Shown: piece after piece, positions 48,038 to 63,954 of the stretch
How the letters are laid out: each line of letters begins with the position of its first letter
Position numbering within the stretch: position 1 is the first letter of the stretch
NCBI GenBank assembly: GCA_937121175.1
Contig: CAKZKD010000037.1
Location: 32,000-95,999 of the forward strand
Origin: an uncultured Flavobacteriales bacterium
Lineage (GTDB): Bacteria > Bacteroidota > Bacteroidia > Flavobacteriales_G > Salibacteraceae
Length of the DNA stretch: 64,000 nucleotides
Direction: 5' to 3'
Translations under genes and position numbers: made by a program
The notes under the pieces: generated by a model
Told to the model about the DNA's origin: nothing
Seen by the model: the letters and a program-made list of their open reading frames with translations, nothing else
The model's database searches: none

Positions 48038-51000
48038 ATGAACGTTTTGCGCAAGCTGTTTATTTCCTTTCTGTTTTTGCTTTTTCAGGCAACAGTATTT
48101 GCGCAGTGCCTTCAAATTATTGATGGAAATGGAATAGCCAGCAACAACCCTAGGTGGGTGCATTGTAATGGCACAGCATACACCTTATTTATTCAAACTA
48201 GCCGAGCAACTGGACCTTATACGATTGATTGGGGTGATGGCACAACAACGAATGGAGCATCCTTTATTCCACCCGCGACTATATCACATAATTATCCGGC
48301 TACCCTTCAAAATTATACCGTAACTTTTACCGAACCGGGTGTCAATTGTATTGTTACGGGTCAATTAGTTGTTGAGCGACCAGTGAATGCCAGTATTACC
48401 AGACCTGTGGGTTCTGGTGGAGCAACAACCATTTGTGCTCCAGGTTCATTAGACTTCATAAACTCCAGCACGGATGCATCAGTGAATACTGTGTTTCGGT
48501 GGGATTTTGGCGATGGTTCACCAATTGTAATAAAAGCAAGCAACGATTCCGGAGTTACTACTTCGCACACCTACCAACGGAATACTGTGAACTGTAATAC
48601 TGTCGTAACATTAGAGGCGGAGAATTTTTGTACCACGGTTCCATCATTTGCATCTGTAGGACCAATCAATATATACGATTTGGATGATGCTGCAATTACT
48701 CCTACTGCAACGTTGTTGTGCTATCCTGATACGTTAGTAGGATTTTTAAACACTTCAGATTTGAATTGTCGTCCAGAGGGAAACACGACACAGCGCTTTG
48801 AGTATTGGAACTTTGGAAATTATTGGGGCGGGGGAGACTCTTTGTTGGGATGGATTCCGTTTGCAAATCCACCTTCGCAAACGTACCCACTGAGTTTTCC
48901 TGGAAAAGGAAGCTATACTATAACCATGGTAGATAGTAACTTGTGTGGAAGAGACACAACTACAACCACCATTGTTATTGGCGATCCGCCAGTTGCACTT
49001 TTTACAACCGACAAAGACACGGTATGCGCAGGAAATCGCATTCGATTTTTCAATAATACTACGGGTGTTGCCAATCAGTCAAGATGGAATTTTGGAGACG
49101 GTGTATGGCGAACACGAGGAATGGGCACCCAAAATAGAACTTTTAATACTCCAGGAACTTTTACCATTCAGCTGGCTGTGTTTAATACAAATGGAAGTGG
49201 AGCATGTACCGATACGGTAAGTCGTCAAATTCATGTTTTGGCAGGACCAACTTCTTCTTTTACTGTAACCCCAGACCAAGGTTGTGACAGTTTACTTGTA
49301 AACATTACAGAAAACAGTGCTGATGCAGCTAAATGGTTATGGGATTATGATGATGGGACAACCGATACTATTTCAAATCCGCTTACACATTTTTATGATA
49401 CCACTGGAAATTTTGATTTAACATTAACTGTAACTCATGCGAATGGTTGTACCGACGCATCAACTGAAACGATAGAAGTATTTAGCTCTCCAATTGTTGG
49501 TTTTACGCCAAAAAATGTGTGCGAAGGTATATTGGCTTCTTTCACCGATAACACAGTAGTTCCTTCGGGTCAGGCATTAACAACTTGGTCGTGGAACTTT
49601 GGAGATGGCGGAACGAGTACCGCTCAAAATCCAAATTACACTTATATAGCCTCAGGAACTTACAAAGTTACCTTAACAGCAAGCACTGCTAATTGTAGTT
49701 CTTTAGATTCATTTAATGTGGTGGTTGAGCCAAAACCAACAGCAGATTTTACCATGTCTGATACCATTGGTTGTTCACCTTTAGGTGTAGTATTTACTAA
49801 TAACTCGCTGGTTTCATCAAATTACGTTTGGGATTTCGGGGATGGAGATACTTCGCACCAAACTTCACCCTCTCACACTTTCACCAACACAACCTCTGCA
49901 ACGGTAAGCTACGATGTAATTCTTTACGCAAATACTGCATTTGGTTGTAGTGACACTCTTCAAAAACGAGTACAAGTTTATGATGTTCCTAATGCTACAT
50001 TTACCAGTAGTGCTGTGCCAGAGTGTGGCCCTTATAATGTTGATTTCACTAATACAAGTACCGGGGGAGTTTCTAATATTTGGGATTTTGATGATGGTGA
50101 CACCAGTCACGCTTCTAACCCAAGTCACACCTTTGAGAATAAAACCCTTTTTATTGAAGTTTTTGAAGTGAAGCTAATAGTGACTTCAACAAATGGTTGT
50201 ACCGACACCGCTTTTCAAAATGTAGTTATCTATCCAGAACCAATATTTACTTTTCAAACATTACCTGATACAGGTTGTAGCCCGCTTAACGTACAATTTC
50301 CGTCCATAACTGGTGCTGTAGCTTACAAATGGTATTTCGGAGATGGAGACAGTACTTTTGGTCCCTCACCTTCGCATGTTTATACCAATTCGACAACCAA
50401 CAATGTTCTATACACTGCAACGTTAATCGCCACTTCAAGTTTTGGTTGTAGCGATACTAATTTGGCTACAATTCTTGTTCACCCGAATCCTTCTGCAGAT
50501 TTTACCGTTAGCGATTCTGTAAGTTGTCAACCGCACAATGTTGTATTTACTAATAATTCAACGGGTTCAATATCCTACGATTGGGATTTCGGAGATGGAA
50601 ATACGAGCACTTCACCTTCAGGTACAGTAAACAATCAGTTTAGGCATAATTTGAGTACAACTCAGAATTATCAAGTGCGGCTTATTGCCGAAACGCAAGA
50701 CGGTTGTTTCGATACGCTTGTAAAACAGGTATCCACATACCCTAAAGTAATAGCCGATTATCAACCAACAGATACTGCGGGTTGCACTCCATTTAGTTTG
50801 ACGTTTAACGACAATTCTACTGGAGGACAGTTCTACACTTGGTCTTTTGGTGATAACAATACTTCGGCCACTACGTCGCCCACACACACCTACAGAAACA
50901 GTACATTGGTTGACCAAATTTACAATCCCAAATTAGTTATTTCATCTCAGTTTGGTTGTATCGATAGTTTACAAGACACCATTATTGTTCACCCATTACC

Positions 51001-53071
51001 AGTTGCGCAGTTTACTCATCCAGTGGTTCGAGGTTGTCATGAGTTGGTGGTAAATTTCATCAACAGTTCTTCTATTGCAGATACCAATATTTGGACTTTT
51101 GGAGACGGGACTATCTTAGGTTCGAACAATAGCAACATTTCCCATACGTATTTAAATACAGGTGCGACCAGTATTTTTAGAGATGTTAAGTTGGATGTAG
51201 AAACGCAGCACGGTTGTCAAGATTCAGCGAAATCTGTTGTGGAGGTTTTTCCTGAGATTATATCAAAATTTGAACATACCGATACAGTCGGGTGCACCGA
51301 TTTGTTTGTTGAGTTTACCGATAGCTCTAAAGGAGCACAATTTTACAATTGGGATTTTGGAGATAACATTAATGCTGGTTCTAAAAGCACGTCCCATGTT
51401 TTTGTAAATCCGTTACTTAGAGACACTACTTATACAGTACAGCAAAAGGTTAGAAGTCCTTTTGGATGCGAAGACTCCAGTACCATTGTTGTTCGTGTTC
51501 ACCCATTACCGATAGCTAGTTTTAATACCAACGTACTCCGTGGGTGCCAACCATTAGACATTACCTTCACCAACAATTCTCAGATAAATGCGAAAAGCTT
51601 TTGGGACTTTAACGATGGAGACACTTCGTTGAGTAATGGAGACCCAACACACACTTTTGAGCACAATGATGTGGTGAGCAAAAACTTCGTGACAAGATTG
51701 ATAGCCGAAACCGATAAAGGCTGTAGAGATACAGTCAGTAGAAGTATTGAGGTGTTTCCGAAAATAACAGCAGACTTTACAATTTCGGACACAAGTGGTT
51801 GCTCGGATCATGAGGTTCAGTTTACGAATACGAGCAGTGGAGAAAACCAATATGCGTGGAGTTTTGGCGATGGAAACTCTGATCGAGTAAGTGACCCACG
51901 AAACATTTTTACCAATACCGATACGGTAGATCGCCAATTTAGAATTCGACTGTTAGTGACTTCCCTTTACGGTTGTGAAGATTCGGTTTTTAAAACTGTA
52001 ACTGTGTATCCGCAGCCACAAGCATTATTTACTCCAAATCCAGTAAATCAAAAGTATCCGAATGCAACGGTAGCGTTAACTAACAATAGTTCTTCAGGAC
52101 CTTGGAATTTTGGCTGGACCTTTGGCGATGGTGCAACATCAACACAAAAGTTCCCAAATTCAAAATTGTACGCAACTTGGGGTGAATACAAGATTCAATT
52201 GATTGCATCAACGAGCAATTGTAGCGATACAGCTGCTCAAACCATTAAAATAGAACCTCCGAAAGCAGTCATTGATTTTAACGCCAGTATTGAAGGATGC
52301 TCACCATTGACATTGGAAATAAAAAACCAAACGATTTTTGGTAAACAATTTCTATGGAATTTTGGTGACGGAGGAACGAGTAGTGCAGAAATACCAGCAC
52401 CATACACCTACAATAGACCTGGCATATATACGGTGACCCTTACCGTAATTGGCGAGGATAATGACATTGTGGAAGAAATAAAAAAAGATAGTATCGTAGT
52501 TTTTGCAGAAGCACGTTCATTTTTTGATTACAGACCAAATGAAGTAAGCGTGCCGAATGATCCATTGATTTTATTCAACCTTTCGGACGATGCTGATACC
52601 TATTTGTGGGATATGGGAGATGGAACCATTTCGACCGAATTAAACCCAGAGCATACCTATCAAGAAGAAGGCGTTTATACCATTTCTTTAATTGCAAATA
52701 ATGAATTTGGTTGTGCTGATACCTTTGAAATAGAGAATGCAGTCACTGCTATTTCTAGTGGTTCACTTGTTTTTCCTACTGCGTTTACTCCAAACTCAGG
52801 GGGACGTACCGATGGCAGTTACGACCCACGCACGTTAGATAATTCTGTGTTTTTTCCAATTTTTGAGGGAGTTGTAGATTATCAACTGCTTATTTTTAAC
52901 CGCTGGGGCGAAATTGTTTTTGAAACAGATGATGTAAATACAGGTTGGGATGGATATTATCGAGACCGAGATGAAATGTGTGCACAGGACGTATATGTTT
53001 GGAAGGCTACTGGAAAATTTGCAAATGGAAAAACCTTTGAAGAAGCAGGGGAAATTACGCTCTTGAAATAG
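48038..53071 (+). CDS. Giant PKD-repeat surface protein with a type-B T9SS (gliding-motility-associated) C-terminal domain
   Basis: 1677 aa with about 17 repeats carrying the W.FGDG....S....H.Y core. The C-terminus is FPTAFTPNSGGRTDG...LLIFNRWGEIVFET...GWDGYY...DVYVWKATG...GEITLLK. Confidence 0.9.
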   Translation: MNVLRKLFISFLFLLFQATVFAQCLQIIDGNGIASNNPRWVHCNGTAYTLFIQTSRATGPYTIDWGDGTTTNGASFIPPATISHNYPATLQNYTVTFTEPGVNCIVTGQLVVERPVNASITRPVGSGGATTICAPGSLDFINSSTDASVNTVFRWDFGDGSPIVIKASNDSGVTTSHTYQRNTVNCNTVVTLEAENFCTTVPSFASVGPINIYDLDDAAITPTATLLCYPDTLVGFLNTSDLNCRPEGNTTQRFEYWNFGNYWGGGDSLLGWIPFANPPSQTYPLSFPGKGSYTITMVDSNLCGRDTTTTTIVIGDPPVALFTTDKDTVCAGNRIRFFNNTTGVANQSRWNFGDGVWRTRGMGTQNRTFNTPGTFTIQLAVFNTNGSGACTDTVSRQIHVLAGPTSSFTVTPDQGCDSLLVNITENSADAAKWLWDYDDGTTDTISNPLTHFYDTTGNFDLTLTVTHANGCTDASTETIEVFSSPIVGFTPKNVCEGILASFTDNTVVPSGQALTTWSWNFGDGGTSTAQNPNYTYIASGTYKVTLTASTANCSSLDSFNVVVEPKPTADFTMSDTIGCSPLGVVFTNNSLVSSNYVWDFGDGDTSHQTSPSHTFTNTTSATVSYDVILYANTAFGCSDTLQKRVQVYDVPNATFTSSAVPECGPYNVDFTNTSTGGVSNIWDFDDGDTSHASNPSHTFENKTLFIEVFEVKLIVTSTNGCTDTAFQNVVIYPEPIFTFQTLPDTGCSPLNVQFPSITGAVAYKWYFGDGDSTFGPSPSHVYTNSTTNNVLYTATLIATSSFGCSDTNLATILVHPNPSADFTVSDSVSCQPHNVVFTNNSTGSISYDWDFGDGNTSTSPSGTVNNQFRHNLSTTQNYQVRLIAETQDGCFDTLVKQVSTYPKVIADYQPTDTAGCTPFSLTFNDNSTGGQFYTWSFGDNNTSATTSPTHTYRNSTLVDQIYNPKLVISSQFGCIDSLQDTIIVHPLPVAQFTHPVVRGCHELVVNFINSSSIADTNIWTFGDGTILGSNNSNISHTYLNTGATSIFRDVKLDVETQHGCQDSAKSVVEVFPEIISKFEHTDTVGCTDLFVEFTDSSKGAQFYNWDFGDNINAGSKSTSHVFVNPLLRDTTYTVQQKVRSPFGCEDSSTIVVRVHPLPIASFNTNVLRGCQPLDITFTNNSQINAKSFWDFNDGDTSLSNGDPTHTFEHNDVVSKNFVTRLIAETDKGCRDTVSRSIEVFPKITADFTISDTSGCSDHEVQFTNTSSGENQYAWSFGDGNSDRVSDPRNIFTNTDTVDRQFRIRLLVTSLYGCEDSVFKTVTVYPQPQALFTPNPVNQKYPNATVALTNNSSSGPWNFGWTFGDGATSTQKFPNSKLYATWGEYKIQLIASTSNCSDTAAQTIKIEPPKAVIDFNASIEGCSPLTLEIKNQTIFGKQFLWNFGDGGTSSAEIPAPYTYNRPGIYTVTLTVIGEDNDIVEEIKKDSIVVFAEARSFFDYRPNEVSVPNDPLILFNLSDDADTYLWDMGDGTISTELNPEHTYQEEGVYTISLIANNEFGCADTFEIENAVTAISSGSLVFPTAFTPNSGGRTDGSYDPRTLDNSVFFPIFEGVVDYQLLIFNRWGEIVFETDDVNTGWDGYYRDRDEMCAQDVYVWKATGKFANGKTFEEAGEITLLK

Positions 53072-54090
53072 TGAAGTTTTTTTCTACCATATTAATCGGT
53101 TTTGCACTCTTCATAGTTGGAGGTGGTAAGGCGCAAGATGCTCAGTTTTCGCAGTTTTATGCCGCTCCGTTAATAATAAACCCTGCACTTACCGGCAATA
53201 CCGTGCAAAGCAGGTTTAGTCTAAACTACAGAAATCAATGGCCTGCGGTGCCAAACTCTAAAGCGTTTTCTACTTACGCATTTTCTTACGAACACAATTT
53301 TGAAGATTACAATAGTGCAATTGGTGGAATGGTTTATCACGATAGAGCAGGATTGGCGGGCCTACGAACAACAAATGTTTTGTTCAGTTACGCCTATCGT
53401 GTGCGAGTAACTAGGAAATTTTCCTGGAAACCAGCATTACAAATTGGTGTTGCAAACCGTCACTTAGATTTTGGTGAACTTATTTTTAATGACCAGTTGC
53501 AAACAGGGGCAACTACATCTGCGTCACAGCAAGATTATATTGCACGTTCTAAGTACACCATGGATATTAATGCCGGTGCTATTGGGTTTTCATCCAATTA
53601 TTGGTTTGGCGTGTCAGTGCATCATCTCAATAGACCAGACGTTTCATTAGTTGGGAATGGAGCAAGGGTTGAGCCTAAGTTAGCCCTTCAAGGGGGTTGG
53701 AATATTCCCGTTAAAAAAGATATTAAAAAAAGAGTAGTTTCTCAGGTAATGCTGGCTGCTAACTACAAACATCAAGGTACACGCGACCAATTGGACATAG
53801 GTGGATATTTCAACTATGTTCCTTTTTTTATGGGTGTTTGGTACCGTGGAATTCCACTAAAAAAGTCGGACGTGGAACTGAATAATCACGATGCAATCAT
53901 TTTTGTGCTTGGTTACAAAAAAGATGGAATGTCTATAGGCTATTCGTATGATGTAACGATTTCAAAACTAACTGCTGGAACCTCTGGCGGCGCACATGAA
54001 ATTAGTACGACTGTAGAATTTGCTTCACGAAAAAACTTAAGAAAGAGGAGAAGACGAAGTCGATTTATGATTCCTTGTCCAAAGTTTTAA
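53071..54090 (+). CDS. PorP/SprF family type IX secretion system membrane protein
   Basis: It has the N-terminal signature AQDAQFSQFYAAPLIINPALTGN and a 339 aa beta-rich body. The GTG start overlaps the stop of the type-B CTD cargo gene by 1 nt. Confidence 0.85.
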   Translation: MKFFSTILIGFALFIVGGGKAQDAQFSQFYAAPLIINPALTGNTVQSRFSLNYRNQWPAVPNSKAFSTYAFSYEHNFEDYNSAIGGMVYHDRAGLAGLRTTNVLFSYAYRVRVTRKFSWKPALQIGVANRHLDFGELIFNDQLQTGATTSASQQDYIARSKYTMDINAGAIGFSSNYWFGVSVHHLNRPDVSLVGNGARVEPKLALQGGWNIPVKKDIKKRVVSQVMLAANYKHQGTRDQLDIGGYFNYVPFFMGVWYRGIPLKKSDVELNNHDAIIFVLGYKKDGMSIGYSYDVTISKLTAGTSGGAHEISTTVEFASRKNLRKRRRRSRFMIPCPKF

Positions 54091-54601
54091 GCGCTTTTGT
54101 TGCACGATTTTTTTCTCCGGCACTGCCATTTTCTATTACTGCTTTTAATGAAATTTCCAATTCACGTTTAATTTCGGGGTAACGGACTAAAAATTTACAT
54201 AGAATATCGATGCACCAAGCGCGCACGGCTATTGCGCTTTGAGGATTATTCAATAAAGAAAAACACTCATCCATTAAAACTCCTTCGTTCTCAGGCGGCA
54301 ATGAGTACTGACCGATAATCTTGAGGTACGTTCTGCGTAAAGAGTCATTTTGAGTTTTGGGAAGAAACGTAATAATGCGGTTGAGGAATGGCTCTACTTT
54401 ATCAGAATTAAGTTGATTTAAATGGTCCAGTACCCAAGCGGCTCTCCAATTGAATTTATTGGTTTCCAATTCAATAAGTTCAAAAATGAAGTCGAGGCTA
54501 ATTTTGTTTTGGTTGGCAAGGGTTGCAATTCGGATGACATTTTCTTTGGAACGGTCGGTAATCAACTCATTCTCCAACCAGTCTTTGGAATACGTACTCA
54601 T
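54065..54601 (-). CDS. Hypothetical helical-repeat (HEAT-like) protein
   Basis: The start is moved to the internal Met (MSTYSKDW), which gives an ATGA overlap with the upstream gene's stop. The body is all helical repeats (AAWVLDHL, AIAVRAWCIDIL). Confidence 0.45.
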   Translation of the reverse strand: MSTYSKDWLENELITDRSKENVIRIATLANQNKISLDFIFELIELETNKFNWRAAWVLDHLNQLNSDKVEPFLNRIITFLPKTQNDSLRRTYLKIIGQYSLPPENEGVLMDECFSLLNNPQSAIAVRAWCIDILCKFLVRYPEIKRELEISLKAVIENGSAGEKNRATKALKTLDKES

Positions 54602-55158
54602 GGGGGAGGGAATCCTGCGTTTGTAATGCATGGCACTGGGCCTTCCCAACCACATTTTGGTTTGTATATGAAAGAAACCAGTGCGTTTTTGTCATTGGTA
54701 ACTGAAAATTCGTGATTACACGTGGCGTTCCATTCCGATATGCATTCTTTATCAAATTCCCAATTACTGTCCTCCAATTCTTTTTTCATTTCAGGATCGG
54801 CTTTATACCCCTCCTTTACGCAATATTCGCCAGGTTCAAGTTCAATAGAAACCACACCCACTTCATTGGTAATAACCCTCTTCGAAACTCCATTGTTGTT
54901 CTCGATGTAAAAAACAAATTTATTAGCCATCTCACCTTTCATTCTCATTTGTTCCATTTCCTCTGATGGGGCCGCTCCACCACAATAAGGTCTAATAACC
55001 CGAACAGAGAAATCTACTTTTCTGGCAGTTGGTTGGCTGTTTTCAACCACATCAGTGGCCGTTTTAATTGGCTTCTCTGTTTCTGTAGAAGTGCTTTTTT
55101 CCTTGTTTTTGCATGCAAATAAGGCTATAACTAAAAATAATAATAAGACTTTATTCAT
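54598..55158 (-). CDS. Hypothetical Cys-rich lipoprotein
   Basis: It has the signal peptide and lipobox LVIALFAC and several Cys residues in the mature part. Confidence 0.5.
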   Translation of the reverse strand: MNKVLLLFLVIALFACKNKEKSTSTETEKPIKTATDVVENSQPTARKVDFSVRVIRPYCGGAAPSEEMEQMRMKGEMANKFVFYIENNNGVSKRVITNEVGVVSIELEPGEYCVKEGYKADPEMKKELEDSNWEFDKECISEWNATCNHEFSVTNDKNALVSFIYKPKCGWEGPVPCITNAGFPPP

Positions 55159-55224: not shown

Positions 55225-56937
55225 ATGGTTAATTATGGACTCACAATTTTTTTCGGACTGACGGTTTTATTATCCAATGCTCAGATTAAATACCCTCATT
55301 TGAAAGGGGAGAGTTTTACCTACGAACAAAGTATAGATGTACTTAATAAGTTGGCAAAAGGTAGTCCGTATATATCTATTGCCGAACAGGGTAAAACTGA
55401 TGTAGGAAGACCTTTGCATACTGTTGTTTTTAATATCGATAAAGAATTTAATCCTGATAGTATCAACAGAGAAGAAAAGGCAATTCTCTTTATCAATAAT
55501 GCTATTCATCCTGGAGAATCTTGTGGTGTTGATGCTACCGTAAAGTTGTTCGAGTACCTTTCGATGCACCGAAAGGAGTTTTCAAACTTAATTGTAGTAG
55601 CTATTCCGGTGTATAATATTGGAGGAATGCTTAATAGGTCGAAATACAACCGGTCTGGGCAAGCTGGACCTGCCGAATGTGGCTTTCGAGGTAACTATCA
55701 ACACCTCGACTTGAATCGCGACTTTATTAAGTCTGATGCATTGAATACGGTATCCTTTCAGGCAATTTTCCATGCTTGGAAACCACATTTATTTATGGAT
55801 ACGCACACCACTAATGGTAGCGACCACCAATATCCGCTTACTTTAATAGTATCTCAACAAAATAAAATGAATCCCATTCTTGCCGATTTTACCTACACTA
55901 AACTAGAAGGTTATCTGTACCGAAAAATGGCGGAAAAAGGAAAGGAGATAACTCCTTATGTCCACTTAGTGAAGAATACACCACAGGAAGGAATTAAAGA
56001 TTTTTTGGAAACTCCCAGGTATTCAAGTGGTTATGTGAATTTATTTAACACGATTGGGCTAATTAGCGAAGCACACAAATATGCCACCTATTTTGACCGA
56101 GTTGAATACACATACGAATTGTTGCGCACGCTTTGCTTGTTTTCCAATGGTAACAACAATGAGCTGGTTCGAATAAAAAAATTAGCCGATGAATCCGATA
56201 GAAACCAGTCGCAGTTTGCGTTGAATTGGACTTTGGATACCAATACTGCCGAAACTTTGAATTTTATGGGATTCGAGTTTTCTATGATTGAAAGTGAAGT
56301 CACTGGCTTACCAATGCGAAAATTCAATAGAGTAAAAAAGCAAACTTTTCAAATTCCCTTTTACAGAAATTACATTGCAACTCAAGGAGTAAGCGTACCT
56401 AAGTTTTACGTTATTCCACAGTGCTACCCTAAAGTTATTTCAATGCTGAAAAGGCAAGGAACCGAATTCATTCCGTTATCAAAAGACTCTACGATTCTAG
56501 GAGCAATGTACTACGTAGATGTTGTAGAAACGTCTAAAACTCCTTACGAAAAGCACTTTTTACACAAAATTGTACAAGTTTCGGAGCAATATCAGCAAGT
56601 GCGTTTTTACAAAGGAGATTACCTAGTTGCTTTGGACCAACCTGTAAGGCGTTTTTTAGTAGAAACACTAGAACCTACTGCGGCTGATGCGTTTTTTAGA
56701 TGGAATTTTTTCGACAATGTCCTGCAACAGAAAGAATGGTTTTCAGATTTCGCTTTTGAACCTATTGCTAAAGAACTACTCGGGAGTAACCCTCAATTGA
56801 AAAGTGAATTTGAGGAAGCCAAAGAAAATGATAGTGCACTGCGCAATAATCACATGGCTCAACTATTTTGGGTTTTCAAACGTTCACAATTTTATGAACC
56901 CGAGCACAAACGGTATCCAATAATGCGTGTATTTTAG
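55225..56937 (+). CDS. M14 family zinc carboxypeptidase-like protein
   Basis: It has a signal peptide, the zinc motif NNAIHPGESCG (HxxE) and a later MDTHTTNG. Confidence 0.75.
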   Translation: MVNYGLTIFFGLTVLLSNAQIKYPHLKGESFTYEQSIDVLNKLAKGSPYISIAEQGKTDVGRPLHTVVFNIDKEFNPDSINREEKAILFINNAIHPGESCGVDATVKLFEYLSMHRKEFSNLIVVAIPVYNIGGMLNRSKYNRSGQAGPAECGFRGNYQHLDLNRDFIKSDALNTVSFQAIFHAWKPHLFMDTHTTNGSDHQYPLTLIVSQQNKMNPILADFTYTKLEGYLYRKMAEKGKEITPYVHLVKNTPQEGIKDFLETPRYSSGYVNLFNTIGLISEAHKYATYFDRVEYTYELLRTLCLFSNGNNNELVRIKKLADESDRNQSQFALNWTLDTNTAETLNFMGFEFSMIESEVTGLPMRKFNRVKKQTFQIPFYRNYIATQGVSVPKFYVIPQCYPKVISMLKRQGTEFIPLSKDSTILGAMYYVDVVETSKTPYEKHFLHKIVQVSEQYQQVRFYKGDYLVALDQPVRRFLVETLEPTAADAFFRWNFFDNVLQQKEWFSDFAFEPIAKELLGSNPQLKSEFEEAKENDSALRNNHMAQLFWVFKRSQFYEPEHKRYPIMRVF

Positions 56938-56944
56938 TTGGAAG

Positions 56945-59137
56945 ATGTTGAATAAATTTTACCTATTTGTTTTTACGCTTTTGGCTTCTAGTACAGTCTT
57001 AGGCCAGTACGGAAAAGTGGATCACTGGGAAACGGCAATTTTTGCATCGGAAGAATGGAGATACCACGTTGGTACAACTGAACCCGATACCAATTGGAGA
57101 GAGCGAACTTTTGATCATAGTGCTTGGTCGGTTGGTAAAGGAGGTTTAGGTTTCGGCTATAGTAATTTGAAGACTGTTATTCCAACAAGTCGTTCCCTAT
57201 TTCTGAGAAAAACGTTTACCATTTCTGACATCTCTAAAATTGAAGCTGCGATTTTGCTGTTTGATTATGATGCTTCGTTTGTAGCATACATAAATGGTTA
57301 CGAATTCAGAAGAGTTAACATAGGTAAGGCATGGGATAAAACGCGACATAGCGAGGTAGCAGATTTGGAACGTAAGGCTCAGTTGGTCGATAATGGATCA
57401 TACGAGGAGTATATTCTTAAAGATTTCCAACTCAATAATCGTATTATAAATGGCGACAATGTTCTAGCCATCCAAGTTCATGGTAACTCTACAATGCCAA
57501 TTCGACTTGCAGCCTTTTTCAATTTACTATTTGGTATGGAGGACGATTCTACTCAATTTTCTCCAGCTCCGTCTTGGTATTCACCTCCGCCAATGTATGC
57601 AGAGTACTCTACACTGCCTATTGTTCGAATTACTTCACCTAGATTAAACGATTCGTTAAAGATTCCAGGTGCCATGGAAATTACGTGGCATGGAAAAGGT
57701 GAGAAGCATTACTTTGACGAAGCACCTAACCATTATAATGGCCCAATAACAATTAAAAATAGAGGAAATAGTACGCTTGAGTTTCCAAAAAAATCAATGC
57801 GCATCGAAACTCAGGATAGTTCTGGCGAAAACCTTAACATGCGTCTTTTAGGATTACCTTCTGAAAACGATTGGGTCCTATATGCTCCTTATACGGACAA
57901 AAGTTTGTTGCGGAATTATGTCATGTACGACATTGCTCGAAATATGCTGGAATGGGCACCAAGAACGCAGCTGTGTGAAGTGTTTCATAATGGATATTAC
58001 TTAGGGGTTTATGTATTTACAGAGAAAATAAAGCGAGATAGAAACCGTGTGAATATTAGAGAACTTAGGAAAAAGGACACTACAGGTAATTTTATTTCTG
58101 GAGGATACATGACTAAAGTAGATTGGCAATACGGTGCAAATCCGGCTGCCTTCACATTGTCTCACAATACCAGTTACCAATATTATTCGGATATAACTTT
58201 TGAGCATGTTTACCCAGAAGTTGACTCGCTTCACCCCAAGCAAAAACAATACATAGAAGACTTTTACTTCAAATTTCAAGAGAATTTATTAAGTGATAGC
58301 TATACAGATTTAAATGTTGGTTATCGACAATTTGTTAGCACCGCAAGTTTTGCAGACTACATGATTCTTAATGAATTATCAAAAGATATTGACTCGTATC
58401 GATACAGCACATATTTCTACAAAAATCATGTAATCGATGATGGTTTAATTCATTTGGGACCAGCTTGGGACTATAACTTAGGATTTGGAAATGTGGATTT
58501 TGGAACAGAAGGGGCGCAGTTTCCCATTAAATGGATGTATAACAAGGAGGGGAGTCGTATTTGGTGGTTTGCGCGGTTGTTAGAAGACCCAAATTTTGCT
58601 GAAATATTAAACTGCAGATGGAACTATTATCGGTCTAGTCGAGGCACAATTTCTAAGAATTATCAATTTAGTCTAATAGATGATGCTATTGCTGAAATGG
58701 GTGAGGCTGTAACTCGAAATCATTATCACTGGAAAACATTAGGCCGATATGTATGGCCCAATAATTTTGTTGGAGAAACGTATCAAGAAGAAATTGATTT
58801 CCTCAAAAAATGGATCGAAGAACGCATAGCTTGGATTGATATAAATGTTCCGGGGGATTGTAATACGCCCGTTAACGTTAATGAAATTAAGGAGTTTGAA
58901 GAAGATGGACTTTTAGTTTTTCCAAACCCTGCAACTTCACAAGTACAAATAGTTTCTGAGGAAAGAATGAGTAATTTGGAGTTATTTGATATTTCGGGTC
59001 AGAGCGTTTTTGAAATGGAATTGAACGACGAATTTCAAGTATTTATTAGCGCAGATGAATTGAATACAGGCCTGTATTTTCTTCAAATAACAACGGAAAC
59101 GGGAAACTTGAAAAATTCCAAATTAATAAAACAATAA
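56945..59137 (+). CDS. CotH kinase family protein with a type-A T9SS C-terminal domain
   Basis: The start is taken at MLNKFYLFVFTLLASSTVLGQ. The CotH-like core includes LLRNYVMYDIARNM, GVYVFTEKIKRD and LGPAWDYNLGFGN. The C-terminus is LVFPNPATSQVQI...GLYFLQITT...KLIKQ. Confidence 0.8.
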   Translation: MLNKFYLFVFTLLASSTVLGQYGKVDHWETAIFASEEWRYHVGTTEPDTNWRERTFDHSAWSVGKGGLGFGYSNLKTVIPTSRSLFLRKTFTISDISKIEAAILLFDYDASFVAYINGYEFRRVNIGKAWDKTRHSEVADLERKAQLVDNGSYEEYILKDFQLNNRIINGDNVLAIQVHGNSTMPIRLAAFFNLLFGMEDDSTQFSPAPSWYSPPPMYAEYSTLPIVRITSPRLNDSLKIPGAMEITWHGKGEKHYFDEAPNHYNGPITIKNRGNSTLEFPKKSMRIETQDSSGENLNMRLLGLPSENDWVLYAPYTDKSLLRNYVMYDIARNMLEWAPRTQLCEVFHNGYYLGVYVFTEKIKRDRNRVNIRELRKKDTTGNFISGGYMTKVDWQYGANPAAFTLSHNTSYQYYSDITFEHVYPEVDSLHPKQKQYIEDFYFKFQENLLSDSYTDLNVGYRQFVSTASFADYMILNELSKDIDSYRYSTYFYKNHVIDDGLIHLGPAWDYNLGFGNVDFGTEGAQFPIKWMYNKEGSRIWWFARLLEDPNFAEILNCRWNYYRSSRGTISKNYQFSLIDDAIAEMGEAVTRNHYHWKTLGRYVWPNNFVGETYQEEIDFLKKWIEERIAWIDINVPGDCNTPVNVNEIKEFEEDGLLVFPNPATSQVQIVSEERMSNLELFDISGQSVFEMELNDEFQVFISADELNTGLYFLQITTETGNLKNSKLIKQ

Positions 59138-59141
59138 CAGC

Positions 59142-59618
59142 ATGAATAAATTACTAATAACAATATTCTGTGCTGCGATTTGTGCACAGATACAAGCACA
59201 AGAGTTAGATTCTGCTTCGTATTTTGATTCTGAAATGAAGCTTGAGAAGCGAAAAATTGTTGAATTGGCTATGCAGCTCAATGAGTTTGAAAGTCCGAAC
59301 TTTTGGCCCTTATATATTGAATTCAATAGTAAATTAGACAAGTTGGATGAAAACTGGCTTTTTCTTTTGAGTGAAGCTGAGAAACAAACTGGTTCTTTAA
59401 ACGACGAGAGAGCTAATCTGATTTGGAGAGAGTTCAACAAGTATATGACAGAAAGACAAAGACTTTTTAATACCTACTATTCAGAGTTCTCCAAAGTAAT
59501 TCCTTCTTCAAAAACCTTCAGGTATTTTATGATAGAAAATAAAACCGATGCGGTTGTGAATGCTGAATTGGTTAAGGAATTAGAAGTAAAAGAATTAAAT
59601 TCTCCAGCTGAGCACTAG
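59142..59618 (+). CDS. Hypothetical secreted helical protein
   Basis: It has the signal peptide MNKLLITIFCAAICAQIQAQ and begins 5 nt after the cotH stop. Confidence 0.45.
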   Translation: MNKLLITIFCAAICAQIQAQELDSASYFDSEMKLEKRKIVELAMQLNEFESPNFWPLYIEFNSKLDKLDENWLFLLSEAEKQTGSLNDERANLIWREFNKYMTERQRLFNTYYSEFSKVIPSSKTFRYFMIENKTDAVVNAELVKELEVKELNSPAEH

Positions 59619-60310
59619 TCTATCTTCAACGAATAACCGATTCCAAAAATATACTCTTGGCCAGGCCTAGCTTGGTTTATTTCACCTTGATAACGATAGA
59701 AAATATCAAAACTGTTGTTTTTAGTAAACTCGAATTCTAAACCACCCGTATAGCGCTGTCTGCTCCAATTTCTAAAACCCTCTGCATATTCCCAAGTGTA
59801 CCAATATTCGGCCGCAGCATAGGATTTTAGTTTTTTTGAAAACTTATGCTGAAACTGAAACTTGAATCTTAAGTTATCTTCAGACAATTCGCCTCTATCA
59901 AACTCCCTCTGAGCTCTAGCTCTGAAATCTATACGATTGTTGTCCATTTTTATTCGAAAAGTATTGTCTAGGTCAACGCGCTGTTCTGCACCAAGACCAT
60001 CTCCCCATCTGCTTAATCGGTAATTGATGCCTGGCCTATACCACTTCGTTATTTCGTATTTTCCAGAGAGTTCTGTGAAGTAATTGTTGAGCTGAGAAAC
60101 GTTGTTTTCAAAACGAGATTGCAGTTCCGCACCTAAAGTAAATTTCTTGTTGTATTCTTTGCTCACAGCTGCACTTGTCCATATTTGAAAGTCTTTTTGT
60201 TGACTTTTTAGTGCAACAGGAAGCCAAATTAGACACGAAATAATTAATATGTTAATCGCTTTGTTCAACTCAGTCTTATTTTTTGAAATAGACTCTGATT
60301 CTTGCTGCAT
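59615..60310 (-). CDS. DUF2490-family outer-membrane beta-barrel-like protein
   Basis: It shows the alternating beta-strand pattern with aromatic ends (DFQIWTSAAVSKEY..., FRIKMDNNRIDFRARAQREF, IFGIGYSLKID) that is characteristic of DUF2490. Confidence 0.65.
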   Translation of the reverse strand: MQQESESISKNKTELNKAINILIISCLIWLPVALKSQQKDFQIWTSAAVSKEYNKKFTLGAELQSRFENNVSQLNNYFTELSGKYEITKWYRPGINYRLSRWGDGLGAEQRVDLDNTFRIKMDNNRIDFRARAQREFDRGELSEDNLRFKFQFQHKFSKKLKSYAAAEYWYTWEYAEGFRNWSRQRYTGGLEFEFTKNNSFDIFYRYQGEINQARPGQEYIFGIGYSLKID

Positions 60311-60914
60311 CCTTCAAATAATCGGCCTCCAATAATTCAACTTTTTCTATCGGACGGCCAGTTCGTTCCTCTAAATCAGCAATTAATATTGGCTCGTTTT
60401 GCGGTTTAATATTTTCAATTCTTTCATACATGATGGTTTGAATCTCAATTCCCGAGTTTAGAATGTACCGTTCTAGAATGTACATGAGTCCAAGCACAAA
60501 TAGATTGGTGAACATTAGCTCTACGTAACTCACTTTTTTTGTACTAATGGCATTGATTACCGAGACCCCAATAATAACAAACATATAGGTCATTTCTTTT
60601 ACAGGGATAGTAGTGGTGCGGTACCTGAGAATTGAGAAAACAGCAAAAAGGCCAAAAGCAAAACCAATACTGAGCTTGGTTGATGCAAATAAATGACAGA
60701 TGAAAAATACCATTGGACTGAACACCAAATAGCTAAATAGGTACTCGCTGTCTTTTCTAGTTGCCTTATATACCTTAAGGATAATTGTGTATGAAATAAC
60801 CAAGTTCAATCCTAATCGAAAGAGTAGCTCAAATAAATCTTCGTTGAATAGTTTAATTCCAAAAAGTCGTAACGGTTCGGATTTTAATAAAATGACGTCG
60901 AATAGTAATTCCAT
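60276..60914 (-). CDS. DUF4956 domain membrane protein
   Basis: It has 3-4 TM helices, the family-typical FGLFAVFSILRYRT motif and a soluble C-terminal tail. Confidence 0.7.
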   Translation of the reverse strand: MELLFDVILLKSEPLRLFGIKLFNEDLFELLFRLGLNLVISYTIILKVYKATRKDSEYLFSYLVFSPMVFFICHLFASTKLSIGFAFGLFAVFSILRYRTTTIPVKEMTYMFVIIGVSVINAISTKKVSYVELMFTNLFVLGLMYILERYILNSGIEIQTIMYERIENIKPQNEPILIADLEERTGRPIEKVELLEADYLKDAARIRVYFKK

Positions 60915-60918
60915 GCTT

Positions 60919-61668
60919 TTAACTAAAGGAGTGAATGTTTTTTAAAAACGGTTTAAAATTATTGTGTTTAATGTCCGGTCTATGAACTAGTACTGCGGCG
61001 CAATATTTAGAAAAGCTACTTGGATAAGCATTTATACCTCGTAACGCACTTACAAACATGCTTTTATTCGAGAATCGTTTTTGCTTTATTTCAGCAATTG
61101 CAATATTTTTAAATGCGTGAGATTTTCCATTGTAGGTGGCCTCAAGGTCTATATCCATGGTAAACTTCTCGGTCATCTGCACATCAGAGATAGTTATTCT
61201 GCTGTAGTTAATTCCAATTGTTTCTACCAAATCGTTGAATCCGATGCCTAATTGCTCGTTAAGGTATTTTTCTGTCAAATCACTTTTGCTATCTGCAAAG
61301 GAAGGAAGTGATATTCTTTTTTTCTCGGTTTTCGATTTGTTGTTCTTTTTTTTGATTTCGAAAACAAAAGGTCCGTTTTCGCTGTATTGTCTCGAGCGAA
61401 CTTTTATTCTATTCAGGTAGCCGGCATGGTGTTTTCTGAAAAATTCAAAATTTGAATAATCGAAATACAGATTTTTATAGTGAAATTGGCGTTTTTTACC
61501 TAGTTCTAAAACACAAACCTGACCTTTAAGAGCCTCTAAAAATAAAGGCAATTTATCGACTGAAAACATGAATTTTGTATCCACACGAGCGTCAAAATCA
61601 ACTTTTGAAAGTTCCTTTAAATCAATTCCTTGGTAAGAATTTACGATATTTTCAATGGTTGAATTCAA
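60919..61668 (-). CDS. VTC domain (polyphosphate polymerase, triphosphate-tunnel) protein
   Basis: 249 aa with RVDTKF, YKNLYFDY, RIKVRSRQY and FEIKKK. The alternating basic strands are typical of the VTC/CYTH-like tunnel. Confidence 0.75.
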   Translation of the reverse strand: MNSTIENIVNSYQGIDLKELSKVDFDARVDTKFMFSVDKLPLFLEALKGQVCVLELGKKRQFHYKNLYFDYSNFEFFRKHHAGYLNRIKVRSRQYSENGPFVFEIKKKNNKSKTEKKRISLPSFADSKSDLTEKYLNEQLGIGFNDLVETIGINYSRITISDVQMTEKFTMDIDLEATYNGKSHAFKNIAIAEIKQKRFSNKSMFVSALRGINAYPSSFSKYCAAVLVHRPDIKHNNFKPFLKNIHSFS

Positions 61669-62432
61669 GGGTTTCTGAAATCAAGAATTTTTATTTCTGT
61701 GGAAACATTAGTGTCCTCATCGTCAAGCGTAATCGAATTAATGACCGCCTTTTCACCAGAAGGACAGTTTAAGGTTCTACACTCAGACATTGCGTAAACT
61801 TGGTATGAGCCTGCTGTAAGACCCTTGAATTGAAAGGAACCGTCTGCACTAGAGCGCACATTGTCGTTTTGTTGATTCCCATCACCATAGATAATATACA
61901 CACGAGCATCTGCATGTCCTCTAGTGTCTATAGTATCGTAATCGTTTTCATTGATATAGATACCTACTAAATTCCCGCTTATTGTCTTGTTTCCACCTTC
62001 GCCTGGGCCACCAGAGTTTTCGCATCCTCTGCCAGTTATTTGGGTAATTGGAATATCCTCAAGAATAACCTCATCCTCTTTCTTCGCAATTTCCACATTA
62101 GTAACTACTTCTTCTAAACCTGTTGCGCACGAGAGACATTCGGAGTAAGTAATAATGGAATAAGCACCCGGTTGTAGAAATTCGAATTTAAATTCTCCGT
62201 CAGCGTTCGTTCGTGTATCGTCGTCAATTTCTCCGGTTGCGTCGTAACTTATATACACTCGTTGGTCTGGAATTCCGATGTTTTCCTCGAGTACATTGCC
62301 GTTATCCTCGCATAAGTAGGTGCCTAATAACTTTCCTTTTAATGTTGTTTTTCCACCTTCTCCAGGTACTTTTTTGCAAGAAGAAACTAAGCCTATTATA
62401 GCAATGAATAAAATGAGTTTTGAAATGCGCAT
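61665..62432 (-). CDS. Lipoprotein with two carboxypeptidase-regulatory-like (Ig-like beta-sandwich) modules
   Basis: Lipobox GLVSSC. The internal duplication aligns RVYISYDATGE..TNADGEFKFEFLQPGAYSIITYSEC with RVYIIYGDGNQ..SSADGSFQFKGLTAGSYQVYAMSEC. Confidence 0.6.
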   Translation of the reverse strand: MRISKLILFIAIIGLVSSCKKVPGEGGKTTLKGKLLGTYLCEDNGNVLEENIGIPDQRVYISYDATGEIDDDTRTNADGEFKFEFLQPGAYSIITYSECLSCATGLEEVVTNVEIAKKEDEVILEDIPITQITGRGCENSGGPGEGGNKTISGNLVGIYINENDYDTIDTRGHADARVYIIYGDGNQQNDNVRSSADGSFQFKGLTAGSYQVYAMSECRTLNCPSGEKAVINSITLDDEDTNVSTEIKILDFRNP

Positions 62433-62435
62433 AAT

Positions 62436-63173
62436 CTATTTTTTAAGAATTCTGTAACGGTCTTTTCCAATAATGAGATTGTATTTTCCGGCTGGGTAGG
62501 TTGCAAAGTGTATGGTCGCAGAAGTGTTTTCCAATTTGGTTCGATAAAGAATTTTATCGGTTTTATTGTCTTCTATTTTTACCAAGTATGTTTTGCTGTC
62601 AGGATTTTTTAGAAGAACAGAAAAACTATTTTTATTTAATGTAATAGAAACCTCATTGGTTGTTTTTCCCTTTAAATCACCTGCGAATATCCGACCTGTT
62701 TTATTCGCGGAATTTGGTGTTGGAATTTGATAGTCATTCGAAGTACTGCCATCTGGTAGAAGGCCAAACGCAACATTAGTAAATTGTCTTTTGTATTTCA
62801 GTTTGTGGCATAAAGTGCCGTTCGGAAAGCTCAAATAAATGGACTCGCCTTTTTGATTGAGTTTGAAATTGGTATTTAATTCCTTAGAGTTTCCATTTCC
62901 ATTTGCCCAAAATAGAAGATGATTTTTCGGCCCAATTGCAGTTCCACTTGGAATCGGGTACATTTTTAGCGTGTCTTTATCGTCTGATAAAAAGAATCCT
63001 GACAAATCCACCGTTTTGCTTGAAGCATTATACAACTCAATGTAGTCGTACGATTTTCCATCTTCACTTTTAAGAAGGCCTTTATTTTGAGTAAGCACCT
63101 CGTTTATAAAGACATCTTGTGCAGATGAAAAGCCAAGAAAAAGAGTGAACAATATGGTGATGAATCCTTTCAT
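62436..63173 (-). CDS. Lamin-tail-domain (LTD) protein, secreted (possible T9SS tail)
   Basis: It has a signal peptide. The LTD signature is VFINEVLTQNKG...DYIELYNASSKTVDLSGFFLSDD. The C-terminal beta-rich ~70 aa resemble a sorting domain, but this is uncertain. Confidence 0.7.
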   Translation of the reverse strand: MKGFITILFTLFLGFSSAQDVFINEVLTQNKGLLKSEDGKSYDYIELYNASSKTVDLSGFFLSDDKDTLKMYPIPSGTAIGPKNHLLFWANGNGNSKELNTNFKLNQKGESIYLSFPNGTLCHKLKYKRQFTNVAFGLLPDGSTSNDYQIPTPNSANKTGRIFAGDLKGKTTNEVSITLNKNSFSVLLKNPDSKTYLVKIEDNKTDKILYRTKLENTSATIHFATYPAGKYNLIIGKDRYRILKK

Positions 63174-63273: not shown

Positions 63274-63954
63274 GTGAATATGAATAGTGCCGAATCTATA
63301 ATTGAGTTTTTTAATAAATTAAACTCCCCAGTAGTTCAAACAAAAGGAGTAGAGGTACTAAACCCTTTACTACTTGACGAAACAAGAAATATTATCTCCA
63401 CTTTTTACTATAAATATTACAACGACAACCGCAAGAGAATAGCATTTATTGGTATCAATCCTGGACGTTTAGGTTCTGGTCTTACTGGAATTGGATTTAC
63501 AGACCCGGTAAACTTGAAAGAGAAATGTGGAATCGATAATTCTTTTCAACAAAAGCACGAACTGTCTTCTCGTTTTGTTTACGATGTCATTGAAGCTTAT
63601 GGGGGAGTAGAAGCTTTTTATCAAGACGTATTTATTTCCAGTACTGTGCCACTTGGATTTGTAAAAGATGGAATAAATCTGAATTACTACGACATTAAAG
63701 AATTAGAAAAAGAATTAACTCCGTACATAAAAACGCAATTTGAGCGTCAATTGAAATTTCTGCGCCGAGACGTGGCTTTTGTTGTCGGAAAAGGTAAAAA
63801 CTTAAAGTTTTTGGAGAAATTGAATAAATCGGAAGGCTATTTTGAGAAATTAGAAGTTTTGCCACACCCTAGATGGGTTATGCAATATCGACTGAAACAA
63901 AAACAAGAGTTTATTGCTGAGTTTGTACAAAAGATATCTAGTTGGGTCAAATAG
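63274..63954 (+). CDS. Uracil-DNA glycosylase superfamily protein (DUF4918/SMUG2-like)
   Basis: It has the UDG-superfamily motif-A-like FIGINPGRLGSGLTGIGFTD and a C-terminal HP..W block (LPHPRWVMQY). Confidence 0.6.
   Translation: MNMNSAESIIEFFNKLNSPVVQTKGVEVLNPLLLDETRNIISTFYYKYYNDNRKRIAFIGINPGRLGSGLTGIGFTDPVNLKEKCGIDNSFQQKHELSSRFVYDVIEAYGGVEAFYQDVFISSTVPLGFVKDGINLNYYDIKELEKELTPYIKTQFERQLKFLRRDVAFVVGKGKNLKFLEKLNKSEGYFEKLEVLPHPRWVMQYRLKQKQEFIAEFVQKISSWVK

Follow-up and report, generated by a model that had tools for sequence, protein, structure and literature searches.

In a 64,000-nucleotide stretch of contig CAKZKD010000037.1 (assembly GCA_937121175.1) from an uncultured Flavobacteriales bacterium, here called the window, a minus-strand operon encodes a VTC-domain protein together with a DUF4956 membrane protein, a DUF2490 protein, a lipoprotein and a secreted lamin-tail domain (LTD) protein. 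It converges with a plus-strand operon that contains the gene of a CotH kinase-fold protein. The closest homologues bear the name Salibacteraceae, which points to a marine, Flavobacteriales-like source. We propose that the minus-strand operon is a trans-envelope module for the synthesis and export of polyphosphate (polyP), organized like a synthase-dependent exopolymer system and served by CotH and LTD partners at the cell surface, and we give this reading a probability of about one half. It is carried by the family memberships of the encoded proteins, the fold and invariant catalytic residues of the VTC-domain protein, the strict linkage of VTC and DUF4956 genes, and the frequent linkage of this pair to genes for an outer-membrane (OM) barrel, a lipoprotein, CotH and LTD.

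The genes concerned are listed below, with lengths in amino acids (aa) and the source of each assignment.

56927-59137, plus strand: CotH kinase-fold protein exported by the type IX secretion system (T9SS), 736 aa (Pfam CotH, Por_Secre_tail, TIGR04183)
59615-60310, minus strand: DUF2490 protein with signal peptide, putative small OM β-barrel, 231 aa (Pfam)
60276-60914, minus strand: DUF4956 inner-membrane protein, 212 aa (Pfam)
60919-61668, minus strand: VTC-domain protein, putative polyP polymerase, 249 aa (Pfam, AlphaFold2 fold)
61665-62432, minus strand: CarboxypepD_reg lipoprotein, periplasmic or OM-anchored accessory, 255 aa (Pfam, lipobox)
62436-63173, minus strand: secreted LTD protein, 245 aa (Pfam)

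An earlier note on this DNA, made from the letters alone, had named the families CotH, T9SS tail, LTD, CarboxypepD_reg, VTC, DUF4956 and DUF2490. All of these score above the Pfam thresholds, and profile hidden Markov model (HMM) searches support the VTC, DUF4956 and CotH assignments on which its functional proposal depended. The tunnel residues of VTC proved present and invariant, and both catalytic aspartates of CotH conserved, as described below.

The VTC-domain protein

The VTC-domain protein is a cytoplasmic, single-domain protein with no signal peptide, SPX domain or transmembrane (TM) segment. Its residues 28-227 match the Pfam family VTC (PF09359) with an E-value of 9.1e-19, scoring 68.4 bits where the cut-off is 23. 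The AlphaFold2 (AF2) model (pLDDT 89.7, pTM 0.85) folds as an eight-stranded triphosphate-tunnel (TTM) β-barrel of the Vtc4 type. The top 13 Foldseek matches of this model are all TTM domains of Vtc4, Vtc3 or Vtc2 (E 6.7e-12 to 3e-9, TMq 0.53-0.64); the best are the Vtc4 structures 8i6v_E (6.7e-12), 3g3r and 3g3q, with Vtc4 E-values of 7e-12 to 5e-11. The E. coli triphosphatase ygiF (2e-8) and CYTH enzymes rank after the Vtc proteins. At the level of sequence, the VTC profile found only marginal matches in the PDB, to Vtc4 and Vtc2 (E~0.04).

Residues were mapped by an HMM profile alignment to Vtc4 3G3Q, using a chain offset of 185 that was fixed by the correct placing of R264, R266 and K200. 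The correspondences are as follows.

Window K32: Vtc4 K200
Window R91: Vtc4 R264
Window R93: Vtc4 R266
Window K106: Vtc4 K281
Window K116: Vtc4 K294
Window R118: Vtc4 R296
Window Y155: Vtc4 Y359
Window R157: Vtc4 R361
Window K168: Vtc4 R373

Across 81 of 81 VTC homologues, which are otherwise 30-77% identical, there is no variation at the mapped basic tunnel residues or at E193/K195 and S220/K221, except that position 168 is Arg or Lys; position 155 is occupied by Tyr or Phe. Such invariance at identities down to 30% argues for a conserved catalytic tunnel. The triple mutant R264A/R266A/E426N of yeast VTC is dead (PMC9911596). E193, which lies in the last strand within an AEIK motif (compare MEIK in Vtc2), is likely the equivalent of E426, and S220-K221 likely correspond to S457/K458. 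We lean towards polyP as the product of the enzyme.

Conservation of the gene neighbourhood

A genome collection was scanned with a 17-sequence VTC alignment, which gave 573 relatives, and the best 80 loci were examined. In 40 loci, each flank of VTC spans 5 kb or more, and de-replication at 70% VTC identity left 35 lineages. Open reading frames (ORFs) in the window and the loci were called mechanically, and locus genes were found with HMMs that had been iterated from the window proteins and built from the same loci.

DUF4956 lies directly downstream of VTC in 77 of 81 loci. The usual order, on one strand, is CotH(-LTD), CarboxypepD_reg lipoprotein, in some cases a MORN-like protein, VTC, DUF4956 and DUF2490. 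Among the 40 fully flanked loci, DUF4956 is present in 39, DUF2490 in 33, the lipoprotein upstream of VTC in 27, CotH in 19 and LTD in 13, and 14 loci hold all five; the corresponding numbers for the 35 de-replicated lineages are 34, 28, 22, 16 and 11. CotH near VTC is usually encoded on the same strand and directly upstream, and LTD near VTC is mostly fused to CotH. Beyond 5 kb on either side of VTC, a single CotH gene was found in 472 kb of flanking DNA. The co-occurrence of VTC, DUF4956, DUF2490, CotH and LTD that the earlier note had made the object of a check exceeds chance by a wide margin, in phyla related to that of the window as well as in unrelated ones. The pairing of VTC with DUF4956 is obligate and the OM barrel a near-constant companion, and CotH and LTD are frequent but facultative.

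Among the best 80 loci, the module occurs in Bacteroidota, Planctomycetota, Marinimicrobia, Chloroflexota and Verrucomicrobiota. Annotated replicons add Deinococcus, with the order CotH, polyP polymerase, DUF4956, as well as Aminobacter and Pseudoalteromonas (Deinococcota and Proteobacteria). In the window, the CotH, VTC and DUF4956 genes all lie within 4.8 kb, with CotH on the opposite strand; the same arrangement of a convergent CotH with a separate LTD and an M14-like gene is seen in the close relatives L001, L088 and L089.

Gram-positive pel operons have been described with accessory genes for CotH, a polyP polymerase and DUF4956 (with DUF4832) (Whitfield et al., 10.1101/768473; PMC12345266); there the triad occurs in Firmicutes and Actinobacteria. 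In S. intermedius it corresponds to SIR_1592-1594 (PMC12345266), and the NELoc-2 locus of C. perfringens carries a CotH, VTC and DUF4956 set (PMC2879425, PMC11677781). The authors of the S. intermedius report state that their search for the triad away from pel loci was fruitless (PMC12345266). Both the window and our survey contradict this, as the triad is widespread without pel: no pel-like or DUF4832 family was found among the window genes at 34-64 kb or among the conserved neighbours in the 80 loci.

The DUF4956 membrane protein and its fusion to CotH

The DUF4956 protein matches its Pfam family over the full length (3.1e-45, 154.4 bits against 30.6). It has 5948 relatives at E<=1e-3, typically with 50-88% identity, and is far better conserved than VTC; its invariant motif is GFAFGLFAVFSILRYRT..VKE. 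The AF2 model, of moderate pLDDT (72.9), shows five helices followed by a C-terminal β-α-β-β (ACT-like) domain, for which weak ACT-like fold matches only were obtained. The charge distribution fits an N-out/C-in topology, in which the basic KATRKD and LRYRT..VKE loops would face the cytoplasm.

A concatenated VTC-DUF4956 query retrieved the protein P0151, which consists of DUF4956, one extra TM helix and CotH. A full-length relative with 52% identity, P0163, was also found; the DUF4956-TM-CotH fusion is therefore rare, with one further representative, but real. P0151 is encoded in an operon (L081:5997-11372) with the order TPR-YaiO OM barrel, VTC, DUF4956-TM-CotH and a second CotH. The fusion ties CotH physically to DUF4956, and with the extra helix the membrane comes to lie between CotH and the C-terminal domain of DUF4956. 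This predicted topology agrees with docking of VTC on the cytoplasmic side and an extracytoplasmic position of CotH.

It is very likely that VTC and DUF4956 work together, and we infer that DUF4956, the obligate partner of VTC, acts as the translocator. The authors of the S. intermedius report liken the DUF4956 homologue to MgtC (PMC12345266). At the level of sequence this assignment was rejected here: no Pfam MgtC match was found at E<=1, and hhalign against E. coli YhiD, of the MgtC family, gave a probability of 0.14%. DUF4956 shares with MgtC only its layout of several TM helices and an ACT-like domain.

The putative outer-membrane barrel, its substitutes and the lipoprotein

The DUF2490 protein (Pfam 2.1e-16, 60.6 bits against 29.8) has a signal peptide, a mature length of ~195 aa, an isoelectric point (pI) of 9.2 and conserved, alternating Arg/Lys residues. 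Other barrels hold its place in several loci. A Porin_O_P protein stands beside VTC-DUF4956 in L035, a Bacteroidia metagenome-assembled genome (MAG; 9e-14), and in the Pseudoalteromonas locus L084 (2.4e-47), so that replacement of DUF2490 by a phosphate-selective porin is seen in two phyla; in L081 the place is taken by the TPR-YaiO barrel (1.4e-47). Classically, porins of the Porin_O_P family take up phosphate and pyrophosphate; no significant similarity was detected between them and DUF2490. Together with the DUF4956-CotH fusion, these replacements strengthen the export interpretation.

In the Pseudoalteromonas locus (L084:6210-8588, NZ_CP142031), LTD is followed by a 104-aa ORF that matches only the C-terminal end of VTC, then by DUF4956 and Porin_O_P. 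Its polymerase gene looks truncated or frameshifted, with the partners intact.

The lipoprotein has two transthyretin-like stretches that match Pfam CarboxypepD_reg (4.8e-13), a lipobox (LVSSC) and an acidic composition. Between lipoprotein and VTC, 39 of 81 loci (L002-L077; for example L008:9405-9974) encode a basic, secreted protein of ~185 aa with MORN_2/YwqK-like repeats, for which no Pfam match reaches the threshold. The window lacks this protein; its lipoprotein has a second CarboxypepD_reg domain instead. The LTD, DUF2490, VTC and MORN-like proteins are all basic.

Further proteins, among them extracytoplasmic phosphate enzymes, join the module in individual loci: a PhoD-like phosphatase in L061, a phytase-like esterase in L086, and Cthe_2159 β-helix carbohydrate-binding proteins (E 1e-69 to 1e-92) beside VTC-DUF4956 in L012:4216-5910, L047:12216-13769 and L053:11766-13229, which belong to Bacteroidota and Chloroflexota. 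A VTC-less locus (L092:5084-11380) has the order double-LTD, DUF4956-like protein (TM part only), HlyD-type membrane-fusion protein, 410-aa protein and CotH with a T9SS tail.

The CotH and LTD proteins

The window CotH has a signal peptide, a CotH domain at aa 276-636 (Pfam 3.8e-47, 161.8 bits against 23.8) and a tail at aa 664-736 that matches Por_Secre_tail (PF18962; 2.8e-11), the type A sorting domain TIGR04183 (3.7e-11) and the C-terminal domain in PDB entry 8GLJ_D. When 15 CotH proteins linked to the cluster were combined in a profile, it found B. cereus CotH (5JD9) at 4.1e-40, with D489 (DIDSY) and D515 (AWDYN) aligned to the NFD and WDYD motifs of that structure. These residues correspond to D228 and D251 of B. 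subtilis CotH and are conserved in 37 of 38 CotH proteins; D228 and D251 are a catalytic and a metal-binding aspartate whose mutation inactivates the kinase (PMC7821199). The N-terminal ~240 aa (residues 26-265; 56927-57720) have no counterpart in Pfam, even with the E-value limit relaxed to 10. This region, which has a weak rhamnosidase-like NCBIfam match and is common to six other loci, may be a substrate-binding module.

The LTD protein (Pfam 4.2e-19, 69.4 bits against 34.3, residues 16-128) has a pI of 9.4. Its C-terminal ~70 aa resemble a T9SS tail weakly (Por_Secre_tail E=0.035), and a local tail HMM did not match them. CotH and most LTD proteins of the module loci carry signal peptides and T9SS tails, the tail of the window LTD being the unconvincing case. 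These signals imply that CotH and LTD act where ATP is absent, and it is mainly for this reason that we suspect the linked polymerase of supplying a phosphoryl donor or a substrate for CotH. This step is speculative, and use of polyP by CotH in either role strikes us as doubtful.

Proposed mechanism

In the proposed mechanism, the cytoplasmic VTC-domain enzyme would make polyP from ATP and pass the chain to an oligomer of DUF4956 in the inner membrane, whose ACT-like domain and basic LRYRT..VKE loop would face the cytoplasm. The CarboxypepD_reg lipoprotein would help the polymer across the periplasm, from where it would leave through the basic DUF2490 barrel, or through the porin substitutes in other genomes. 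Once at the surface, the polymer could be bound or used by the LTD protein, which is basic, and by the CotH that the T9SS exports, with polyP as phosphoryl donor or substrate of CotH, a role that is most attractive because no ATP is available outside the cell. For export across the envelope as such, we see the chances as even.

Several observations weigh against this mechanism. The non-catalytic Vtc2 and Vtc3 match the VTC model nearly as well as Vtc4, so the fold alone is no proof of polymerase activity. The proposed equivalents of E426 and S457/K458 follow from strand position and local motifs rather than from an alignment; a profile of the C-terminal half of VTC found nothing useful in the PDB, and E426 and K458 were not directly alignable. 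The searchable literature yielded neither biochemical data nor functional work on a VTC-domain protein from any bacterium. The DUF4956 model, itself of moderate confidence, has no significant fold match in the PDB; no relation in fold or sequence was detected to the Vtc1/DUF202 channel or to a transporter of known structure, and the concatenated query yielded no VTC-DUF4956 fusion. The DUF2490 profile matches NanC, KdgM and OmpG weakly (E 0.07-0.5; NanC and KdgM E~0.08); NanC and KdgM are small acidic-sugar channels. The 80 VTC loci are the most similar matches, mostly from Bacteroidota MAGs, and are not fully independent of one another. Many of them hold the VTC-DUF4956-DUF2490 core without CotH nearby, and among metagenomic loci anchored on the window's CotH clade, VTC or DUF4956 lies in the available flank in 19 of 80, with VTC in 3 and DUF4956 in 5 of the 21 that are fully flanked. 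Finally, in S. intermedius, deletion of the three homologues gave only modest phenotypes, and the authors of that work proposed cytoplasmic polyP, the other VTC subunits being missing (10.1101/2024.04.20.589940; PMC12345266).

The earlier note had suggested that VTC and DUF4956 could be a bacterial analogue of the synthase-channel pair. The Vtc4-type fold and the strict linkage of the two genes are in line with this, and the interpretation is partly supported. DUF4956 shows no likeness to Vtc1 and was not found fused to VTC, and we therefore speak of a proposed channel.

Alternative explanations

The product might stay in the cytoplasm, where polyP or triphosphate would be made or hydrolysed and DUF4956 would anchor, regulate or sense, the envelope proteins being merely co-regulated. 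Besides the view of the S. intermedius authors, who liken the DUF4956 homologue to MgtC, itself a regulator rather than a channel, this reading can point to the lack of a transporter-like fold match, to ACT-like C-terminal domains, which are typically ligand sensors (the ACT matches here being weak), and to other TTM enzymes, which are hydrolases (the ygiF and CYTH matches). However, the comparison with YhiD found nothing in favour of an MgtC relationship, the VTC model is nearer to Vtc4, Vtc2 and Vtc3 than to the hydrolases, and a cytoplasmic role leaves unexplained the OM barrel of 28 of 35 lineages, its exchange for phosphate-selective porins or a TPR-porin, the HlyD-type adaptor and the DUF4956-TM-CotH fusion. 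We consider this reading unlikely. The same porins could serve traffic in the other direction: an anion-selective OM barrel (DUF2490, or Porin_O_P in other genomes) would admit environmental polyP or pyrophosphate, proteins of the periplasm and surface would bind or trim it, DUF4956 would import it and the tunnel enzyme would degrade or use it. The classical function of Porin_O_P, the PhoD-like and phytase-like phosphatases of some genomes and the many TTM enzymes that hydrolyse tri- or polyphosphates (PMC4641920) are in line with uptake. Against it, the enzyme falls within the VTC branch, with the residues required for polymerization retained, Pst, PhoU, PhoB/R and periplasmic phosphate-binding proteins are not among the conserved neighbours in the 80 loci, CotH with its kinase fold has no obvious part in scavenging, and the TPR-porin (L081) and HlyD adaptor (L092) are parts of the export type. 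Uptake is the less probable of these two readings, and we think it improbable.

A further possibility is that the polymer, or a phosphoryl group, modifies an exopolysaccharide, a surface glycan or a protein, with CotH, and elsewhere Cthe_2159, as a glycan or matrix kinase. The triad lies inside Gram-positive pel operons, and the available part of the S. intermedius report describes lower Pel-dependent aggregation after deletion of the CotH and DUF4956 homologues, with no mention there of a polyP measurement (PMC12345266). The recurrence of Cthe_2159 proteins in three loci, the GT2, epimerase and dTDP-sugar genes that flank the module in two loci only (L016 and L061) and the N-terminal domain of the window CotH, which has no family match, also speak for it. 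Yet polysaccharide-synthesis genes are not among the conserved neighbours of the Bacteroidota module in the 80 loci and the 30 kb of the window that precede the cluster contain none, and the only characterized CotH enzymes are protein Ser/Thr kinases (PMC7821199). Modification of a surface glycan or matrix seems to us a slim prospect, about on a par with uptake; it is in part a sub-case of the polyP export module rather than fully exclusive of it. Finally, two unrelated convergent operons might have come to lie side by side by chance. The window CotH is indeed on the opposite strand, the M14-like gene is lineage-specific and the 158-aa gene unique, and most CotH genes have no module nearby. 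But 16 of 35 lineages have CotH no farther than 5 kb from VTC, CotH is nearly absent farther out, the triad recurs in Deinococcus and in Gram-positive bacteria, and the DUF4956-CotH fusion exists. Chance is refuted for the core operon and unlikely for CotH, and as an account of the whole locus it is very improbable indeed.

Organization of the locus and flanking genes

The two convergent operons described in the earlier note were recovered with all eight ORFs at the coordinates it had given. In addition to CotH, the plus-strand operon comprises two genes:

55225-56937, plus strand: possibly M14-like secreted protein, 570 aa (Pfam Peptidase_M14 below cut-off)
59142-59618, plus strand: small secreted acidic protein, last gene of the operon, 158 aa (no family)

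The M14 peptidase call of that note is weak. The 570-aa protein matches Peptidase_M14 at E=1.2e-3 and 18.9 bits, below the Pfam cut-off of 21.6, over profile positions 4-136 only; an HPGE motif is visible, and no match was found among PDB sequences. The gene is seen only in the closest relatives L001, L088 and L089 and is a lineage-specific addition. The 158-aa protein matches no Pfam, NCBIfam or PHROG family and has no homologue in any of 80 related loci. A 186-aa lipoprotein gave a marginal match to a PHROG family of unknown function.

Minus-strand junctions, in gene order and with ORFs as called, are a 3 nt gap, a 4 nt overlap, a 4 nt gap and a 35 nt overlap. Spacing of 5 nt or less, as claimed earlier, thus holds at three junctions and fails at DUF4956/DUF2490, where the overlap may shrink if another start codon is used. 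On the plus strand, the 570-aa and CotH genes overlap by 11 nt and a 4 nt gap separates CotH from the 158-aa gene. The stop codons of the 158-aa and DUF2490 genes overlap at 59615-59618 in a CTAG palindrome, with zero intergenic space for terminators. Scans of the locus for terminators and promoters gave nothing above chance, the promoter models used containing no Bacteroidota promoters.

Upstream, at 48038-54090 on the plus strand, a gene for a 1677-aa secreted, apparently repeat-rich protein is joined by a start/stop overlap to a gene for a PorP/SprF family protein (8.7e-60). The pair looks like a typical large T9SS type-B cargo with its own OM partner; the T9SS-exported CotH is encoded a few kb further downstream. 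A 196-aa ORF just upstream of the cluster (54065-54655, minus strand) has a weak HEAT/Adaptin-like match (E=0.0025). The C. perfringens NELoc-2, with its CotH and VTC genes, also includes a HEAT-repeat/PBS-lyase protein (PMC11677781), which may be a coincidence. On the other side, a uracil-DNA glycosylase superfamily protein (5.4e-15; 63274-63954, plus strand) is encoded divergently from LTD and seems unrelated to the module.

In 15-18 of the surveyed loci (L008:12021-17118, L028, L041, L042, L052, L062, L069, L074), ispF, porV and porU follow VTC-DUF4956(-DUF2490) on the opposite strand, and a cytidine deaminase gene lies upstream. A functional link to the T9SS was considered for this arrangement and set aside; it is probably clade synteny, because the housekeeping ispF and the cytidine deaminase gene are conserved alongside. 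It nevertheless puts the module beside core genes of the T9SS, to which porV and porU belong.

Implications

In reviews of polyP, VTC figures as eukaryotic, and synthesis in bacteria is assigned to PPK1/PPK2 (PMC10657179). A conserved VTC-type enzyme that is coupled to envelope proteins in bacteria would add a third, export-oriented route beside PPK1 and PPK2, and would give a genetic handle on the placement of polyP at the bacterial surface or in the medium. The boldest form of the proposal is a dedicated and widespread bacterial polyP secretion system, composed of VTC, DUF4956 and an anion-selective OM barrel, that is evolutionarily independent of PPK1/PPK2 and feeds extracytoplasmic CotH kinases with donor or substrate. 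We regard this form as unlikely. If true, it would amount to a polyP-powered pathway of extracellular phosphorylation and would be a testable answer to the energy puzzle posed by CotH kinases that are secreted with their catalytic residues intact and have no obvious extracellular energy source.

The occurrence of the triad beyond pel loci also changes the reading of the Gram-positive pel-linked genes, and DUF4956, DUF2490 and the MORN-like family each gain a specific, falsifiable hypothesis of function. The module is common and experimentally tractable. A homologous DUF4956-DUF2490 pair in Bacteroides thetaiotaomicron, BT3498-BT3499, which appears in the literature in a transcriptome table only (PMC10434189), makes the hypothesis testable in a model organism.

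Comparison with known systems

The eukaryotic VTC complex (PDB 7YTJ, 8I6V; PMC9911596) is the best structural match. The window protein has the same TTM tunnel fold, keeps basic tunnel residues including K200, R264 and R266, and is a soluble polymerase genetically tied to a membrane protein, which makes coupling of synthesis to translocation the natural model. In contrast to the eukaryotic enzyme, it has no SPX domain and is not fused to a membrane domain, and the five-helix, ACT-like DUF4956 is unrelated to the three-helix Vtc1/DUF202. Furthermore, the proposed target is the periplasm or the outside rather than the vacuole, and the OM barrel, lipoprotein, CotH and LTD have no yeast counterpart.

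The synthase-dependent exopolymer systems (alginate, cellulose, PNAG and Pel) combine a synthase/translocon in the inner membrane with a TPR protein and an OM porin. The module is similar in operon logic, with a polymerase in the cytoplasm, a partner in the inner membrane, a lipoprotein in the periplasm and a barrel in the OM, and the TPR-YaiO barrel of L081 recalls exporters of the PelB/BcsC/PgaA type. Here, however, the polymer would be inorganic polyP, and no glycosyltransferase, c-di-GMP receptor or homologous component is present. OprP/OprO porins (Porin_O_P) hold the DUF2490 place in L035 and L084, and DUF2490 is likewise basic with alternating Arg/Lys, but the window protein is a DUF2490 protein and much smaller.

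The spore-coat Ser/Thr kinase CotH of Bacillus (5JD9/5JDA) and the window CotH have in common the CotH domain (profile match of 4e-40) and both catalytic aspartates. Bacillus CotH resides in the mother-cell cytoplasm, whereas the window protein is exported via Sec and the T9SS to an ATP-free compartment, carries an extra N-terminal domain and a C-terminal sorting domain, and has no evident CotB/CotG-like substrates.

The closest genetic parallel is the Gram-positive pel triad, in which the same three families adjoin and CotH is secreted, VTC cytoplasmic and DUF4956 a multi-TM protein with a cytoplasmic ACT-like domain. The window differs in having neither pel genes nor the DUF4832 hydrolase, in its CotH on the opposite strand, and in being a diderm version with DUF2490, a lipoprotein, a T9SS-exported CotH and a separate LTD. 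The earlier note knew of no bacterial system of this composition with a characterized function. This has to be toned down, as the triad had already been noted at Gram-positive pel operons and in NELoc-2, although with modest deletion phenotypes and no mechanism; what is new here is the diderm variant, with its OM barrel, lipoprotein, T9SS-exported CotH and separate LTD, of a module that had been noticed and is mechanistically uncharacterized.

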